In this document: piece after piece, positions 1 to 61,473 of the stretch | Layout: the number at the start of each line of letters is the position of its first letter | Position numbering within the stretch: the first letter of the stretch is position 1 | Assembly: GCA_963719515.1 (NCBI GenBank) | Contig: CAVRCJ010000001.1 | Span: 64,001 to 128,000, forward strand | Source: an uncultured cyanobacterium | GTDB lineage: Bacteria > Cyanobacteriota > Cyanobacteriia > CAKZMO01 | Direction of reading: 5' to 3' | DNA: 64,000 bases | Program-made: the position numbers and the translations under genes | The notes under the pieces: generated by a model | Database searches by the model: none | What the model was told of the DNA's origin: nothing | The model's input: only the letters and a program-made list of their open reading frames with translations

Positions 1-416
1 ATCAGCAGCTAGCGCTGCTGTGGGTGGTCTACACCAAGATTGGAACGTCAATTACGCCTGCTGCCCCCGATGCCGCCTCACCCGCGATCGCGGGCGGACT
101 GTTCGAGCAGGTCAAGCAGCTCGGACAGCAGGAACAGCTCGAGGCAATGCGCGCCATCGCTCAGGGAAGCGATACTACTCTGAGCCGCGAGTATGGTTCC
201 CTCAGCGCTGAGACAAAGCTCGCGTTTTGGTACCAGCTAGCGCAGGGTATGACGTCGGGCAGCATTATTCCTATGCCTGAAGACTATTCTCTATCCAGCG
301 AAGTCAGCCAAGCAGTAGGGACTCTAGAGTCGTCTGGGTTCGAGGAGCAGATTACGGTGCTGCGGAACGTTGCTGATGCCATGGGCGCTGCGCCTGCGCC
401 TGGCTCCAAGGTGTAG
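1..416 (+). CDS. Orange carotenoid protein N-terminal-domain protein (helical carotenoid protein), 5' end outside window
   Basis: Frame open from base 3: QQLALLWVVYTKIGTSITPAAP...SREYGSLSAETKLAFWYQLAQGM...IIPMPEDY...EEQITVLR; typical OCP-NTD/HCP motifs, no NTF2 C-domain. Confidence 0.85.
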   Translation, partial: QQLALLWVVYTKIGTSITPAAPDAASPAIAGGLFEQVKQLGQQEQLEAMRAIAQGSDTTLSREYGSLSAETKLAFWYQLAQGMTSGSIIPMPEDYSLSSEVSQAVGTLESSGFEEQITVLRNVADAMGAAPAPGSKV

Positions 417-13619: not shown

Positions 13620-13633
13620 GGCGTAGTGCCTGT

Positions 13634-13705
13634 TGGGGTGTCGCCAAGTGGTAAGGCAGCGGGTTTTGGTCTCGCCATTCCTAGGTTCGAATCCTAGCAC
13701 CCCAG
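13634..13705 (+). tRNA. tRNA-Gln(TTG)
   Basis: Acceptor TGGGGTG/CACCCCA, anticodon stem GCGGG/CTCGC with loop TT-TTG-GT, GGTTCGAATCC T arm; CCA not encoded. Confidence 0.97.
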
Positions 13706-13728
13706 TTTAAAAGAACGTAGTGCATTCT

Positions 13729-31773: not shown

Positions 31774-32064
31774 CTATCGCTGGATGGGGGCGTCTAGGGT
31801 GCGCTGCCGCGTGAGGTAGGCCATCATCTGACCCTGGCTTTGGGTGATCCTGATGCCGTCGGGGCCAACCTTGAAGGGGCCGGCCCACAGGAAGTGCTCG
31901 ACGTAGCGGCGGACGTGGAGCACGTAGATGGCTTCGCGGATGCCTTCGGGAGAGCCGATGAGGATGTGGCGGATGATTTCGCCGTTGGGGTCGGCCTCGG
32001 GGGTGATCAGCACGGGGGGTGCCGCCTCAGGTTGAGACGGCTGCTCGGGGTATAGGAATGTCAT
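31774..32064 (-). CDS. Small hypothetical protein, copy A (RH.LIGSPEGIRE family)
   Basis: Clear paralog of 57208..57486. Confidence 0.85.
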   Translation of the reverse strand: MTFLYPEQPSQPEAAPPVLITPEADPNGEIIRHILIGSPEGIREAIYVLHVRRYVEHFLWAGPFKVGPDGIRITQSQGQMMAYLTRQRTLDAPIQR

Positions 32065-32279
32065 GATTTTGTTGAGTTAATGGGCAAGAAGCCCAAAAAC
32101 TTGGCCATCCCGGACTATGGCATGTCTAGGATGGCCTCTTGCGATTGGTTAAAATCACAAAAGTCCAAGACAGCGTACATCTGTCGCGGGCTAGGGCGCG
32201 ATCGTCACCGTGAATGGCGATCGCGTCCGCTGCTGACCAAATTTTTGGGAAGGTAGAGCTAGGTGTTAAACAGCTCTAG
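32065..32279 (-). ncRNA. Putative structured 5' leader RNA, copy A
   Basis: Six hairpins and a CCCAA.A.TTTGGTCA box shared with 56993..57207. Confidence 0.6.
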
Positions 32280-32285
32280 ATAGAG

Positions 32286-32314
32286 AGGATAGCGCACCTA
32301 GTACAAAGGGGCAA
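32286..32314 (-). promoter_or_regulatory. Putative sigma70 promoter of cassette A
   Basis: TTGCCC-N17-TATCCT; same arrangement in copy B. Confidence 0.6.
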
Positions 32315-32632: not shown

Positions 32633-33435
<803 letters not shown>

Positions 33436-38272: not shown

Positions 38273-40052
38273 TTGGTTGATTCTCAGCCCCAATCCTCTT
38301 CCCTACGGCATCTACGGCGGGTGCTGGGTCGTCTCGCCGCCTATCCCGCCCTTGCCCTCGGCACGTTGGGGAGTGCCCTGCTGCTGGTGGCGGCCTATGT
38401 GGCCACGCCGCAGCTGTTCCGCTGGGCCATCGACGAGGGCATCACCAAAGGCAACTTCACCGTCATCCTGCACAGCGGCATTGGGCTATTGATCGCCGCC
38501 GTGGCCCGTGGCCTGTTCAACTTTGGACAGAGCTTTTGCGCCGAGGCCCTGTCCCAAAGCGTGGTCTACGACCTGCGCAACCGCATCTTTAGCAAAATTC
38601 AGACCCTCAGCTTTAGCTACCACGACCAGGCCCAGACCTCTCAGCTGCTGACGCGGGTGACCAGCGACATTGAGCAGATTCGCACTTTTTTGAGCACCAA
38701 CCTGGTGCAGGTGATCAGCGGCTCCGTCACCCTGGTGACCATCGCCGTGCTGCTGCTGGTGATGAACTGGGAGCTGGCCCTGATCAGCCTGACGGTGGTG
38801 CCCATCGCGGGGTGGCTAATGGCGCGGTTTTTTAGCCGCAATAACCTACTGTTTCGCCGGGTTCAAGAGCAGCTCAGCGATCTCAACGGGGTGCTGCAGG
38901 AAAATCTGCTGGGGGTGCGGGTGGTGAAGGCCTTTGTGCGGGGGCCGGTGGAAACCGAGCGCTATACCCGGCTCAACCAGGACCTGGTGGCCGCTAACCT
39001 GAAGACCATCCAGGCAATCCGCAATACGTTTCCGTTTATGTTCCTGGCCAGCAACCTGGTGATTGTGGTGGTGATCGGCTACGGCGGGGCGGCGGTGATT
39101 GACCAGCGCTTTTCGGTGGGGGAGCTGGTGGCCTTTAACGCCTATCTGCTGCTGATTTTGCAGCCGATTTTGCTGATTGGCTTTGCGGCCCCGGCGATCG
39201 CCCAGGCGGCGGCTTCGGCGGAGCGGGTCTATGAGGTGGTGGACGCTGAGGTTGAAATTAAGGACCGGCCCCGGGCGGTGCCCTTCGAGCGATTGCGGCG
39301 GCAGAATCACCTTCGAAGACGTCTCCTTCCGCTATCCGGGGGCCACTACCCCGGCCCTGTGCCACATTTCTTTTGAAACCAAGCCCAACGAGCTAATCGC
39401 TATTTTGGGCATGACCGGCTCGGGCAAGAGCACCGTCACCAACCTGATTCCTCGCTTTTACGACGTAACCTCGGGGGCAGTGCGCATCGACGGGCGAGAC
39501 GTGCGGGACTTTACCCTCCACAGTTTGCGATCGCGCATCAGCACGGTGTTTCAGGAGACTACTCTGTTCTCGGGCACGATTTTTTCTAACATCGCCTACG
39601 CCAAGCCCGAGGCTACCCTAGACCAGGTGATGGAGGCGGCGAAAGCGGCCCAAATCCACGACTTTGTGGCTGGCCTGCCGGAGGGCTACGACACGGAGGT
39701 GGGAGAGCGAGGGGTGGGGCTTTCGGGCGGCCAGAAGCAGCGGGTGGCGATCGCCCGTACTCTGCTTACGGACTACAAGATTTTGATTCTGGATGACAGC
39801 ACTTCTGCGGTGGATGCCCAGACCGCTGCCCAGATTCAGGCGTCGCTGGATGACCTGATGCGCCGCCGCACCTGCACGTCGTTTGTGGTGGCGCAGCGAA
39901 TTAGCACGGTGCGCAATGCGGACCGGATTTTGCTGATGGATAAGGGGCGACTGGTGGCGCAGGGGACCCATGAGTTGCTGATGGCGAGCAGTCCGCTGTA
40001 TGGGGTGATTTTGGAGTCTCAGGTTGGGGCAGCCCCGGCGCTGACGGGGTGA
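38273..40052 (+). CDS. ABC exporter permease/ATP-binding subunit A, frameshift near 39292
   Basis: TM domain; GMTGSGKS, LSGGQKQR, degenerate Walker B ILDDS. Confidence 0.88.
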
Positions 40053-56957: not shown

Positions 56958-56986
56958 TTGCCCTCTGACCGCGAATAGTGTAAATT
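56958..56986 (+). promoter_or_regulatory. Putative sigma70 promoter of cassette B
   Basis: TTGCCC-N17-TAAATT. Confidence 0.6.
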
Positions 56987-56992
56987 TTACGC

Positions 56993-57207
56993 TTGAGAGC
57001 TGCAACCCGCAGCTTAGCTCCCAAGACTTTGGTCATAAACGGCGACGACCGTTGCTGGAGACAGCGATCGCCGCCTGACCCCCAAGACAGGACAGAGCTG
57101 TCCGGGCGCTATGGGCATTGTCCCATGGCCATCCCGAACACCCAACGTCGCAGGGATGGCCAAGGCTTGGGTTTCCTACCCATCAACGCAAAACAGGAAC
57201 CCAAACC
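56993..57207 (+). ncRNA. Putative structured 5' leader RNA, copy B
   Basis: Same hairpin series as 32065..32279 with a compensatory change. Confidence 0.6.
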
Positions 57208-57514: not shown

Positions 57515-58604
57515 TTACCACAGGTGGCACTGCCCGTGGTCGCGCAGCAGATGGTCACAAAGCACCAGGGCCATCATCGCCTCCACCATGGGCACCGCCC
57601 GAGGCAGCACGCAGGGGTCATGTCGCCCCCGCGCCGCCAGCACCGTATCTTCCCCCTCGCGGGTCACCGTGTTCTGCTGCTTGCGAATCGTGGCCGTCGG
57701 CTTAAAAGCGACGCGAATCACCACCGGCTCCCCGTTGCTGATGCCCCCCTGCACCCCCCCCGAGCGGTTGGTGCGGGTGCGGGTGTTCCCCGCCTCGTCG
57801 ATATAAAATTCGTCGTTGTGCTCGCTGCCGGTCATCGTCGTCCCGGCAAACCCCGAGCCAATCTCGAAGCCCTTACTGGCGGGCAGCGACATCACACCCT
57901 TGGCTAGGTCAGCCTCCAGCTTATCGAACACCGGAGCCCCCAAACCACGCGGCACCGAGCGGGCCACACATTCCACCACGCCACCGATGGAGTCTCCCGG
58001 CGCGCCCCGTTTGCTCAATCAGATCGATCATCCGCTCGGCGCAGTCGGCGTCAGGGCAGCGGACGATGTTGCTCTCCACCTGCTCTAGAGTGACGGTGGC
58101 GGGGTCTACGACCCCTTCTAGGGTCTGAATGCGCTTCACGTAGCCCACGATTTCCACGCCCGCCGCCTGACGAAGAATTTTTTTGGCGATCGCCCCTGCT
58201 GCCACCCGGCCAATGGTCTCCCGCGCCGAGGAGCGTCCCCCGCCCTGCCAGTTGCGAATGCCGTACTTAGCGTCGTAGGTGGCGTCCGCGTGGGAGGGGC
58301 GGTAGGCCGTCTGCATCTCGGTGTAGTCCTGAGAGCGGGTGTCTTTGTTGCGCACCAGGATAGAAATAGGCGTCCCTGTGGTTTGGCCCTGAAACACCCC
58401 CGACAAAATCTCGCAGGTATCTGACTCTTTGCGCGGCGTGGTGATTTTACTTTGGCCCGGACGGCGGCGGTCTAGGTCAAACTGGATTTCTTCCGCCGAA
58501 AGCTCTAAGCGAGGCGGACAGCCATCTACCGTGACGCCGACTCCGCCCCCGTGGGACTCTCCAAAAGTGGTGATCCGAAACAGCTGTCCAAAAGTGTTGC
58601 CCAT
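57515..58604 (-). CDS. aroC: Chorismate synthase, apparent frameshift near 57997
   Basis: [33 protein letters not shown]. Confidence 0.96.
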
Positions 58605-60411: not shown

Positions 60412-61473
60412 TTAGCCTTTAATGGCAGGTGCCTCAGCAGCAGCAAGGTCAAGCGGGAAGTTGTGAGCGTTGCGCTCGTGCATCACTTCCATACCTAGGT
60501 TGGCGCGGTTGATGATGTCCGCCCAGGTGTTGATGACCCGGCCCTGGCTGTCTAGAACAGACTGGTTGAAGTTGAACCCGTTCAGGTTGAACGCCATCGT
60601 GCTGATGCCCAGCGCCGTGAACCAGATGCCTACGACAGGCCATGCGCCCAAGAAGAAGTGCAGTGCCCGTGAGTTGTTGAACGATGCATATTGGAAGATC
60701 AGGCGGCCGAAGTAGCCGTGCGCTGCAACGATGTTGTAGGTCTCTTCTTCTTGCCCGAACTTGTAGCCGTAGTTCTGCGACTCAGACTCAGTCGTCTCTC
60801 GCACCAGTGAAGAGGTCACCAGTGAACCGTGCATCGCGCTGAATAGTGCGCCGCCGAAGACGCCTGCCACTCCCAGCATGTGGAAGGGGTGCATCAGAAT
60901 GTTGTGCTCGGCCTGGAACACGAACATGAAGTTGAACGTGCCCGAGATGCCCAGCGGCATGCCGTCAGAGAATGAACCCTGGCCGATGGGGTAGATGAGG
61001 AAGACTGCCGTTGCTGACGCTAGAGGCGCGCTGTAGGCAACGCAAATCCAAGGGCGCATGCCCAACCGGTAAGACAGCTCCCACTGACGACCCATGTAGG
61101 CAAAAACGCCAATTAGGAAGTGGAATACCACTAGCTGGTAAGGTCCGCCGTTGTACAGCCACTCGTCAAGTGATGCTGCTTCCCAGATGGGGTAGAAGTG
61201 TAGGCCGATGGCGTTGGATGACGGAACAATTGCACCAGAGATGATGTTGTTACCGTACATCAGTGAACCTGCAACAGGCTCGCGGATGCCGTCGATGTCG
61301 ACGGGAGGCGCTGCAACGAATGCAATCAAGAAGCAGATGGTTGCGGTTAGCAAAGTCGGAATCATCAGGACGCCGAACCAACCGACATAGATGCGGTTGT
61401 TGGTGCTGGTGACCCAGTCGCAAAACCGCTCCCATACGTTAGCGCCAGAGCGCTGCTGTAAAGAAGTAGTCAT
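60412..61473 (-). CDS. psbA: Photosystem II D1 protein (Q130 form, 353 aa)
   Basis: Complete D1 with normal Mn-cluster ligands; ends [17 protein letters not shown]. Confidence 0.99.

Follow-up and report, generated by a model that had tools for sequence, protein, structure and literature searches.

Two related cassettes in the window

The window, i.e., the entire stretch of 64,000 nucleotides analysed here, contains two copies of a compact cassette composed of a promoter, a long structured leader and a small gene (Table 1). The ORFs start with ATG (copy A) and GTG (copy B), and the encoded proteins are 55% identical. In both copies the -35 and -10 boxes are separated by 17-nt spacers, and 221 nt lie between the -10 box and the start codon. 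An earlier note on this DNA had described the two paralogous small genes with these promoters, spacers and distances, together with a series of leader stems; all of this was confirmed, including the position of every stem that it had named. The two leaders have folding z-scores of -7.5 and -4.2, and none of 200 shuffled sequences folded as well.

Table 1. Features of the two cassettes in the window.
Feature	Position	Strand	Sequence or basis
Copy A sense -35 box	32309..32314	-	TTGCCC
Copy A sense -10 box	32286..32291	-	TATCCT
Copy A hairpin P1, 5' end of leader	32256..32276	-	fold
Copy A P2 5' strand, long-range helix (box of the earlier note)	32235..32249	-	fold, covariation
Copy A hairpin P3, variable tip	32186..32230	-	fold, covariation
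Copy A hairpin P4, 5-bp stem, variable 7-nt loop	32169..32185	-	fold, covariation
Copy A hairpin P5, contains antisense -10 box	32136..32163	-	fold
Copy A predicted antisense -10 box, TAAAAT	32150..32155	+	sequence pattern
Copy A predicted antisense RNA, two hairpins, start taken from -10 box	32162..32250	+	inference and fold
Copy A hairpin P6, base overlapping P2 3' strand	32103..32136	-	fold
Copy A P2 3' strand, common to RBS hairpin (decayed in copy A)	32092..32106	-	fold
Copy A ORF, 96 aa, Pro-rich N-terminal tail and beta-alpha-beta-beta core	31774..32064	-
Copy B sense -35 box	56958..56963	+	TTGCCC
Copy B sense -10 box	56981..56986	+	TAAATT
Copy B hairpin P1	56997..57015	+	fold
Copy B P2 5' strand	57020..57034	+	fold
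Copy B hairpin P3	57040..57073	+	fold, covariation
Copy B hairpin P4, variable 7-nt loop	57086..57102	+	fold
Copy B hairpin P5, antisense -10 box in loop	57108..57129	+	fold
Copy B predicted antisense -10 box, GACAAT with extended TG	57117..57122	-	sequence pattern
Copy B predicted antisense RNA, two hairpins	57020..57110	-	inference and fold
Copy B hairpin P6	57127..57161	+	fold
Copy B P2 3' strand	57158..57171	+	fold
Copy B RBS-hiding hairpin, 57167-57177 with 57195-57204, exclusive with P2	57167..57204	+
Copy B ORF, 92 aa	57208..57486	+

The cassette is present in about 70 copies

The earlier note had counted the cassette as present twice. Both copies are real, but the genome holds about 70: a leader profile identified 69 loci, 66 of which continue into the ORF, and 12 ORF matches have no leader. 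An iterated protein profile gave 80 matches (E ≤ 0.001) among 84,848 six-frame ORFs, split pseudogenes included, and a separate genome search for the ORF gave 79. The copies are spread over 18 of the 21 contigs and fall into three protein subfamilies with one common leader layout. Similarity between cassettes begins at the -35 box and stops at the stop codon, and the flanking genes are unrelated. The pattern TTGnnn-16..18-TAnnnT precedes 55 of 57 paralogue leaders, compared to 2.9% of 2000 random windows. The sense promoters were also scanned with the generally known consensus motifs of LexA and NtcA, and both were rejected as regulators (LexA box in 1 of 57 promoters at a background of 1.25%; NtcA box in 0 of 57). 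The ORF core is under purifying selection, as dN/dS is about 0.2 by a rough count over 11 pairs.

Members of the family were found in 15 of 16 other genomes of the same taxonomic family, with up to 60 matches each, and in 24 of 201 genomes of a phylum-wide sample that includes the genome studied here. The protein family comprises 800 clusters at 50% identity. Homologues occur on 13 of 72,556 plasmid records, and there were no matches among 50,697 phage records. The assignment of the leader to no named RNA family holds: at the gathering threshold, Rfam 15 returned only tRNAs for the window and 13 related loci, and in E-value mode merely unrelated matches of 8–20 bits. The literature searched, which did not extend to subscription papers and supplements, contains no description of the cassette. 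The main texts of PMC11109978 and PMC8632094 hold no passages on cyanobacterial motifs, and the supplements of these papers could list such a motif.

The leader contains competing helices

Forty leaders (34 from this genome and six from others) were aligned with MAFFT, and a common structure was derived with RNAalifold. It consists of five elements, i.e., a long-range helix P2 that encloses the hairpins P3–P6. Two-sided changes were observed at 21 of 31 base pairs, G-U wobble pairs are retained in the helices, and 91.7% of the cells in the alignment are paired, compared to 74.4% after shuffling, a test that overstates the effect because the paralogues are related, and to 37–47% with slid partners. 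These values support the proposal that the leader is under structural selection. What had been noted as a conserved box is real, and turned out to be the 5' strand of P2, whose partner lies just before the RBS region. Likewise, the last hairpin with the TGGG motif exists in both window copies, but the element found throughout the family is a longer hairpin in which the same GGG pairs with the Shine-Dalgarno region.

In its 3' strand, P2 shares nucleotides with the base of P6 as well as with the 5' strand of this Shine-Dalgarno-hiding hairpin, and two mutually exclusive folds were found, one of which hides the RBS. The RBS hairpin covaries by subfamily, with a duplex energy of -16.6 kcal/mol for cognate strands vs. 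-9.4 kcal/mol for strands from other subfamilies; the corresponding values for the P2 duplex are -17.2 and -12.9 kcal/mol. In another genus group (L068, L072, L088, and L089), all three competing strands change in concert. The RBS hairpin carries no U run and covers the Shine-Dalgarno sequence. In the window, copy B retains this duplex (-13.2 kcal/mol), whereas it has decayed in copy A (-3.6 kcal/mol). As copy A has lost most of this hairpin and also has no Shine-Dalgarno sequence, it may be silent. At one locus in a related genome (L066 in G012), the copy directly follows a tRNA gene that replaces most of the leader, and the RBS hairpin is kept.

The balance between the two folds was calculated for nascent prefixes, defined as transcripts ending just after the strand common to P2 and the RBS hairpin, and for complete leaders. 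By equilibrium folding, which does not model kinetics, P2 forms with at least 6 bp in the prefixes of 34 of the 40 leaders and in 20 of the 40 complete leaders; six leaders have no P2 even as a nascent prefix. The window copies reach 12.9 bp (copy A) and 13.8 bp (copy B) in their prefixes. With 30 coding bases appended to the leader, P2 averages 1.4 bp; holding the RBS open in the calculation increases this to 6.8 bp. Since P2 is more common in prefixes than in complete leaders, the RBS is predicted to be open in nascent RNA and closed in mature RNA. Taken together, the leader very probably contains a switch, and the competing helices support the cis-regulatory option among those that the earlier note had considered.

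A putative promoter on the opposite strand of P5

Hairpin P5 had previously been described as a short stem with unrelated sequence. The stem is present, but a -10 box on the opposite strand inside it had been overlooked. An opposite-strand TAnnnT located 11–20 nt behind P4 was identified in 46 of 57 copies of this genome (shuffled sequences: 6.7 ± 2.4, a contrast that the kinship of the paralogues exaggerates); these 57 were scored out of 74 copies, as 17 without a P4 anchor were dropped. A looser -10 pattern, chosen after the data had been seen, covers 55 of the 57. Leaders from other genomes gave a comparable picture. A leader match was obtained at 32 of 164 loci, and after removal of four without an anchor, 28 were scored, which belong to four families and include some near duplicates. 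Among these, the strict pattern was found in 17 (shuffles: 3.2 ± 1.6) and the looser pattern in all 28 (shuffles: 5.6 ± 2.0). The antisense -10 boxes comprise 13 different hexamers, all of them -10-like, within a variable P5 sequence. They reside in the stem or the loop of P5 alike (0–6 unpaired bases), as expected of a DNA signal. An extended TG accompanies 5 of the 11 hexamers that lack the first T, compared to none of the 46 others, and four of these five cases belong to one subgroup. In the leader sequences, neither a consistent -35 box nor a clear terminator was recognised for the antisense unit.

The predicted antisense RNA starts about 7 nt past the -10 box, forms two hairpins complementary to P4 and P3, and reaches the P2 strand. 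On the strength of the -10 pattern, the leader probably yields an opposite-strand RNA of about 90 nt or more. In an equilibrium model of 40 leaders, blocking the region covered by this RNA made the RBS costlier to open, the mean rising from 8.6 to 10.3 kcal/mol (mean difference +1.7 kcal/mol), with an increase in 25 leaders, a decrease in 5, and no change in 10. For the two window copies, the increase is only 0.1 and 0.2 kcal/mol.

In one family-1 cassette (G000:C1:181060-182316), about 770 nt interrupt the sequence right after P4; P5 with its antisense -10 box is gone, and the ORF is intact. As far as we can tell, the start of the insert resembles the 3' end of a group II intron in reverse complement.

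Loops of P4 and P3 vary between copies

The hairpin loops facing the predicted antisense RNA are highly diverse. Among 57 copies, 53 distinct P4 loops were counted; eight copies carry the same P4 loop as some other copy, and 23 have a loop that is one base different. In 19 close pairs, which were selected by leader similarity, differences affect 58 of 129 sites in the P4 loop, 78 of 197 in the P3 tip, and 372 of 3946 elsewhere. Where the ORFs could be aligned as well (13 pairs), sites in the P4 loop (32 of 89) differ more often than those in other loops (68 of 341; p = 0.003) and not significantly more often than four-fold degenerate sites (100 of 353; p = 0.19). The loops of P4 and P3 can change freely. 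We considered diversifying selection for the P4 loop and dropped it, as a p-value of 0.001 on unmatched pairs became 0.19 on matched ones. A tRNA-like reading of P4 was rejected as well, as the loops vary freely and neither ARAGORN nor Rfam finds anything at P4. As the loops differ between copies, each antisense RNA is expected to act mainly on its own copy.

The gene product belongs to an unclassified family

The proteins consist of a variable Pro-rich tail followed by a core of about 60 residues in which one Gly is invariant, a Trp is nearly so, and His, Tyr, and Glu residues are conserved. AlphaFold2 predicts a beta-alpha-beta-beta arrangement (mean pLDDT 74.5). A membrane helix was absent from the four proteins analysed (highest 19-residue hydropathy 0.37–0.95). 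Searches of Pfam, NCBIfam, PHROGs, PADLOC, and PDB sequences with single proteins and alignments gave nothing credible, the ESM Atlas returned unnamed cyanobacterial clusters only, and named homologues are cyanobacterial hypothetical proteins. Family searches with the 92–96-aa window proteins revealed neither a Rep domain nor a transposase match, and family and fold searches revealed no likeness to known anti-defence or recombination proteins. Foldseek gave no match at E ≤ 0.001, either for the single domain or for P0017, in which the core domain is naturally duplicated in tandem. With SHS2-, dodecin- and MinE-like folds considered for the predicted topology, a fold search decided on no fold, with a best Z of 4.1 (rmsd 4.6, 66 aligned residues), followed by MinE (3.9) and dodecin (3.2); the best Z for the P0017 model was 5.4, which likewise decides no fold. 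As judged from these analyses, the product is a soluble protein of an unclassified family. The tandem duplicate suggests that the single core domain dimerises.

Homologues in other genomes are mostly without the leader

Among 129 loci of other genomes, 16 have the leader, 44 have a short HIP1 hairpin of a Nostocales type, and 69 have neither; these shares are biased, as 80 loci are the closest relatives of one Nostocales protein. Because homologues thus occur without the leader at 113 of the 129 loci, the earlier suggestion of an RNA–protein complex finds no support. The short Nostocales leader of these 44 loci (among L102-L169, L204, L207, and L209) comprises one or two HIP1-containing hairpins behind the promoter. 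In this promoter, a GTA-N8-TAC palindrome, which we assume to be NtcA-like, is located between the -35 and -10 boxes.

Many of the leaderless homologues adjoin repressor genes. Out of 80 candidate upstream ORFs, 30 were picked by eye, and 15 of these matched HTH/Xre or RHH families (E ≤ 0.01). Examples include divergent Xre/HTH genes (L073, L208, L218, L223, and L225), divergent RHH/ParG genes (L101 and L227), upstream DUF7662-HTH_3 genes (L076, L077, L200, and L221), and upstream HTH genes (L098, L124, and L145). Altogether, the gene adjoins at least four unrelated repressor types, and operator-like repeats separate the two in several cases. The gene tends to have a private lock, either an RNA or a protein, as would suit a product that does harm or is needed for a short time only.

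Among the 112 ORFs that neighbour 60 loci of this genome, no partner recurs throughout, and neither an integrase nor a reverse transcriptase was found. These ORFs comprise core genes as well as matches to TIR (6), TPR (6), Uma2 (5), and restriction-modification (4) proteins, none of which was found among 47 window ORFs that served as a small control. In sister genomes, the nearest relatives of the two window copies (L191, L179, and L177) have only the cassette in common with them, and the flanks differ. Behind aroC, the site of copy B, genome G002 has a cassette of another subgroup with its ORF deleted, and G001 has no cassette. Such differences in cassette sites between sister genomes show that copies come and go. 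By eye, no terminal repeats were seen at the cassette ends in alignments and at pair boundaries. Several recent duplicates end at HIP1 octamers; since HIP1 occurs here at 1.5 per kb, BLAST alignments end there by chance, and we regard HIP1-bounded movement as a lead only. Three cassettes (L024, L030, and L049; see also window 60412-61473) lie head-to-head behind psbA-type genes. The psbA-type and aroC cases hint at a preference for sites after the 3' ends of core genes.

Regarding plasmid-borne homologues, one on plasmid D of Trichormus variabilis (L091 1180-1620) is flanked by a divergent parG on one side and a replication gene on the other; the region upstream of the homologue contains a long-range inverted repeat that ends next to the start codon. 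Another homologue precedes a tyrosine recombinase.

Comparison with known antisense systems

By analogy, the arrangement is best read as antisense-controlled translational attenuation as in RNAI of pSK41. According to excerpts of PMC5703833, RNAI is about 83 nt long and folds into two stem-loops with a 5' tail; it pairs with the leader about 100 nt upstream of the start region, and this makes a hairpin form that hides the RBS. The cassette resembles this system of staphylococcal RepA_N plasmids, as far as those excerpts describe it, in that two hairpins are predicted for its antisense RNA, whose target stops about 100 nt short of the start codon. However, pSK41 RNAI controls a replication initiator, whereas the cassette encodes a 60-residue domain and is chromosomal, with about 70 paralogues that carry different loops. 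Moreover, the two share no sequence relation. In the systems of pT181 (RNAI), pIP501 (RNAIII), and repABC (ctRNA), the antisense RNA flips the nascent leader, and the RBS is open without it (excerpts of PMC5703833 and PMC3155836). These stop transcription at an induced terminator in the accounts excerpted there, in contrast to the cassette with its RBS-covering last hairpin that has no U run. Plasmid copy-number control itself was rejected as an explanation, as the gene is no replication initiator and about 70 copies are dispersed over most contigs.

Multi-copy type I toxin–antitoxin loci such as hok/sok and ibs/sib comprise paralogues with private specificity. The common type I class encodes membrane toxins, whereas the product of the cassette is predicted to be soluble, without a membrane helix, and the putative antisense gene is nested in the leader. 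The timP/TimR pair, as described in excerpts of PMC11228461, shares several features with the cassette: a small ORF, a long structured 5' UTR, a stem-loop hiding the Shine-Dalgarno sequence, and a long-range activating pairing that the antisense RNA prevents. According to the same excerpts, type I toxins are usually closed in the nascent mRNA, which is the reverse of the RBS predicted to be open in the nascent cassette transcript. The earlier idea of an RNA antitoxin with its toxin can be kept for the nested antisense RNA only, and does not hold for the leader itself as the antitoxin.

In cyanobacteria, msoT1/msoA1 of Microcystis is the first type I candidate (PMC12390103, in excerpt), and it was the only one found in the literature searched. 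The excerpt lists ten candidates of 39–81 aa with one or two membrane helices each, and has msoA1 overlapping the CDS and the 3' UTR. Like the cassette, msoT1/msoA1 combines a cyanobacterial small ORF with a predicted antisense RNA; the two are set apart here by their descriptions alone, as excerpted. The control of establishment genes in pLS20-family plasmids by EGeRS1 and EGeRS2/Reg also involves repeated structured upstream regions, and one gene class is governed there by either such a region or a dedicated repressor (excerpts of PMC8708921). In those excerpts, EGeRS1 has no constitutive promoter or antisense promoter activity and precedes varied operons, whereas the cassette is one promoter, one leader, and one ORF. 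NsrR1 of Nostoc, an NtcA-repressed trans-acting sRNA, was judged unrelated from its description in excerpts of PMC6166021.

Proposed mechanism and alternative explanations

We lean, by a modest margin over doubt, towards a self-contained cassette that is locked by its own antisense RNA and whose product may inhibit growth. On the sense strand, the promoter pattern would act as a constitutive sigma-70-type promoter and give an mRNA with a 215-nt leader. During synthesis, the 5' box would pair with the segment before the RBS (P2), and the RBS would emerge open. The open state with P2, for which covariation was observed, would be metastable and relax to the RBS-hiding hairpin, an order of folding that rests on computation. 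From the opposite strand, the -10 box inside P5 would direct synthesis of the two-hairpin RNA of about 90 nt or more. By comparison with plasmid systems, this RNA would meet the loops of P4 and P3, block P2, and force the RBS hairpin to form. Given the observed loop variation, each antisense RNA might work mainly on its own copy. Protein would then be produced only in the absence of the cognate antisense RNA, i.e., when the cassette enters a new cell, when the locus has been lost, or when transcription stops. In the weakest step of the scheme, a growth-inhibiting product would turn the cassette into an addiction module that gains one new specificity at a time.

Toxicity of the protein is close to an even call, falling slightly on the side of doubt. 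More tentatively, the family may represent a selfish chromosomal module, i.e., a soluble toxin or establishment factor under a plasmid-style antisense lock that has reached 50–70 copies per genome via new loop specificities. If this is true, each change in the two RNA loops makes a lock that is proof against the antisense RNAs already present, a single genome operates dozens of orthogonal antisense switches in parallel, and the protein family alternates between RNA locks and private HTH/RHH repressors across cyanobacteria.

The alternative that fares best keeps the same antisense lock with a non-toxic protein, an establishment or mobility factor produced in a burst on DNA entry (zygotic induction) that helps to fix the cassette or its neighbours. 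We consider it unlikely, roughly half as credible as the locked cassette with a harmful product. It agrees with a leader that is open when nascent and closed by antisense RNA, which is the logic of plasmid copy control, and with the 13 plasmid records with homologues, including the neighbouring parG/replication gene and tyrosine recombinase. Repressor-controlled forms exist, as they do for plasmid establishment genes (excerpts of PMC8708921), and the closest relatives of copies A and B occupy other sites in sister genomes. The searches for anti-defence and recombination proteins, however, found no likeness, and the neighbourhood survey yielded no integrase or reverse transcriptase, nor were terminal repeats seen.

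A switch acting purely in cis, e.g., a riboswitch, a thermometer, or a protein-binding and possibly autoregulated leader, would need no antisense RNA and would have the P5 hexamer as an RNA motif. The competing helices are established independently of any antisense RNA, the antisense unit has no recognised -35 box or terminator, and the computed antisense effect is small in the window copies, all of which suits such a switch. However, the loops are the least conserved part of the leader, unlike ligand pockets, the hexamer holds the opposite-strand -10 pattern in stems and loops alike, and the downstream gene is always the same ORF family rather than a pathway. A purely cis-acting switch is thus improbable.

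A non-autonomous mobile element or MITE-like repeat, with structure serving DNA movement and the ORF as a passenger or helper, is very unlikely: about 70 dispersed copies with sharp ends, the turnover of sites between sister genomes, and recent duplicates ending at HIP1 octamers would fit it, but the ends are a -35 box and a stop codon without inverted repeats, target duplications, or a transposase match, the octamers are frequent enough to be hit by chance, G-U wobble pairs are kept as in RNA, and the ORF is under purifying selection.

To summarise the preferred reading, the antisense-locked cassette, we see a real, covarying leader switch with a probable nested antisense RNA in about 70 copies, as far as sequence comparison can indicate. 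What would be new is plasmid-type control on a chromosomal small-gene family of about 70 copies; the control principle itself is known. If confirmed, an undescribed RNA family and an undescribed protein family work together here, and a principle of plasmid replication control has been carried over to a chromosomal small gene. The family would then be a candidate RNA-controlled addiction or establishment system for filamentous cyanobacteria and, to our knowledge, possibly the largest collection of paralogous loci under antisense control within a single bacterial genome. Its dozens of loop variants would provide a natural library for the evolution of antisense specificity and for orthogonal translational switches.

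Other features of the window

Two genes in the window are split into separate frames, possibly by assembly indels: chorismate synthase (57515-58604, reverse strand), which is broken into two frames, and an ABC transporter (38273-40052). A tRNA-Gln(UUG) at 13633-13706 is unrelated to the cassettes. Finally, a repeat at 32746-33143 lies 430 nt upstream of copy A; its end presumably resembles that of an IS200/IS605-family element. A 21-nt core of this repeat occurs 51 times in the genome, and a 400-nt piece is 93.5% identical to a site in sister genome G002.
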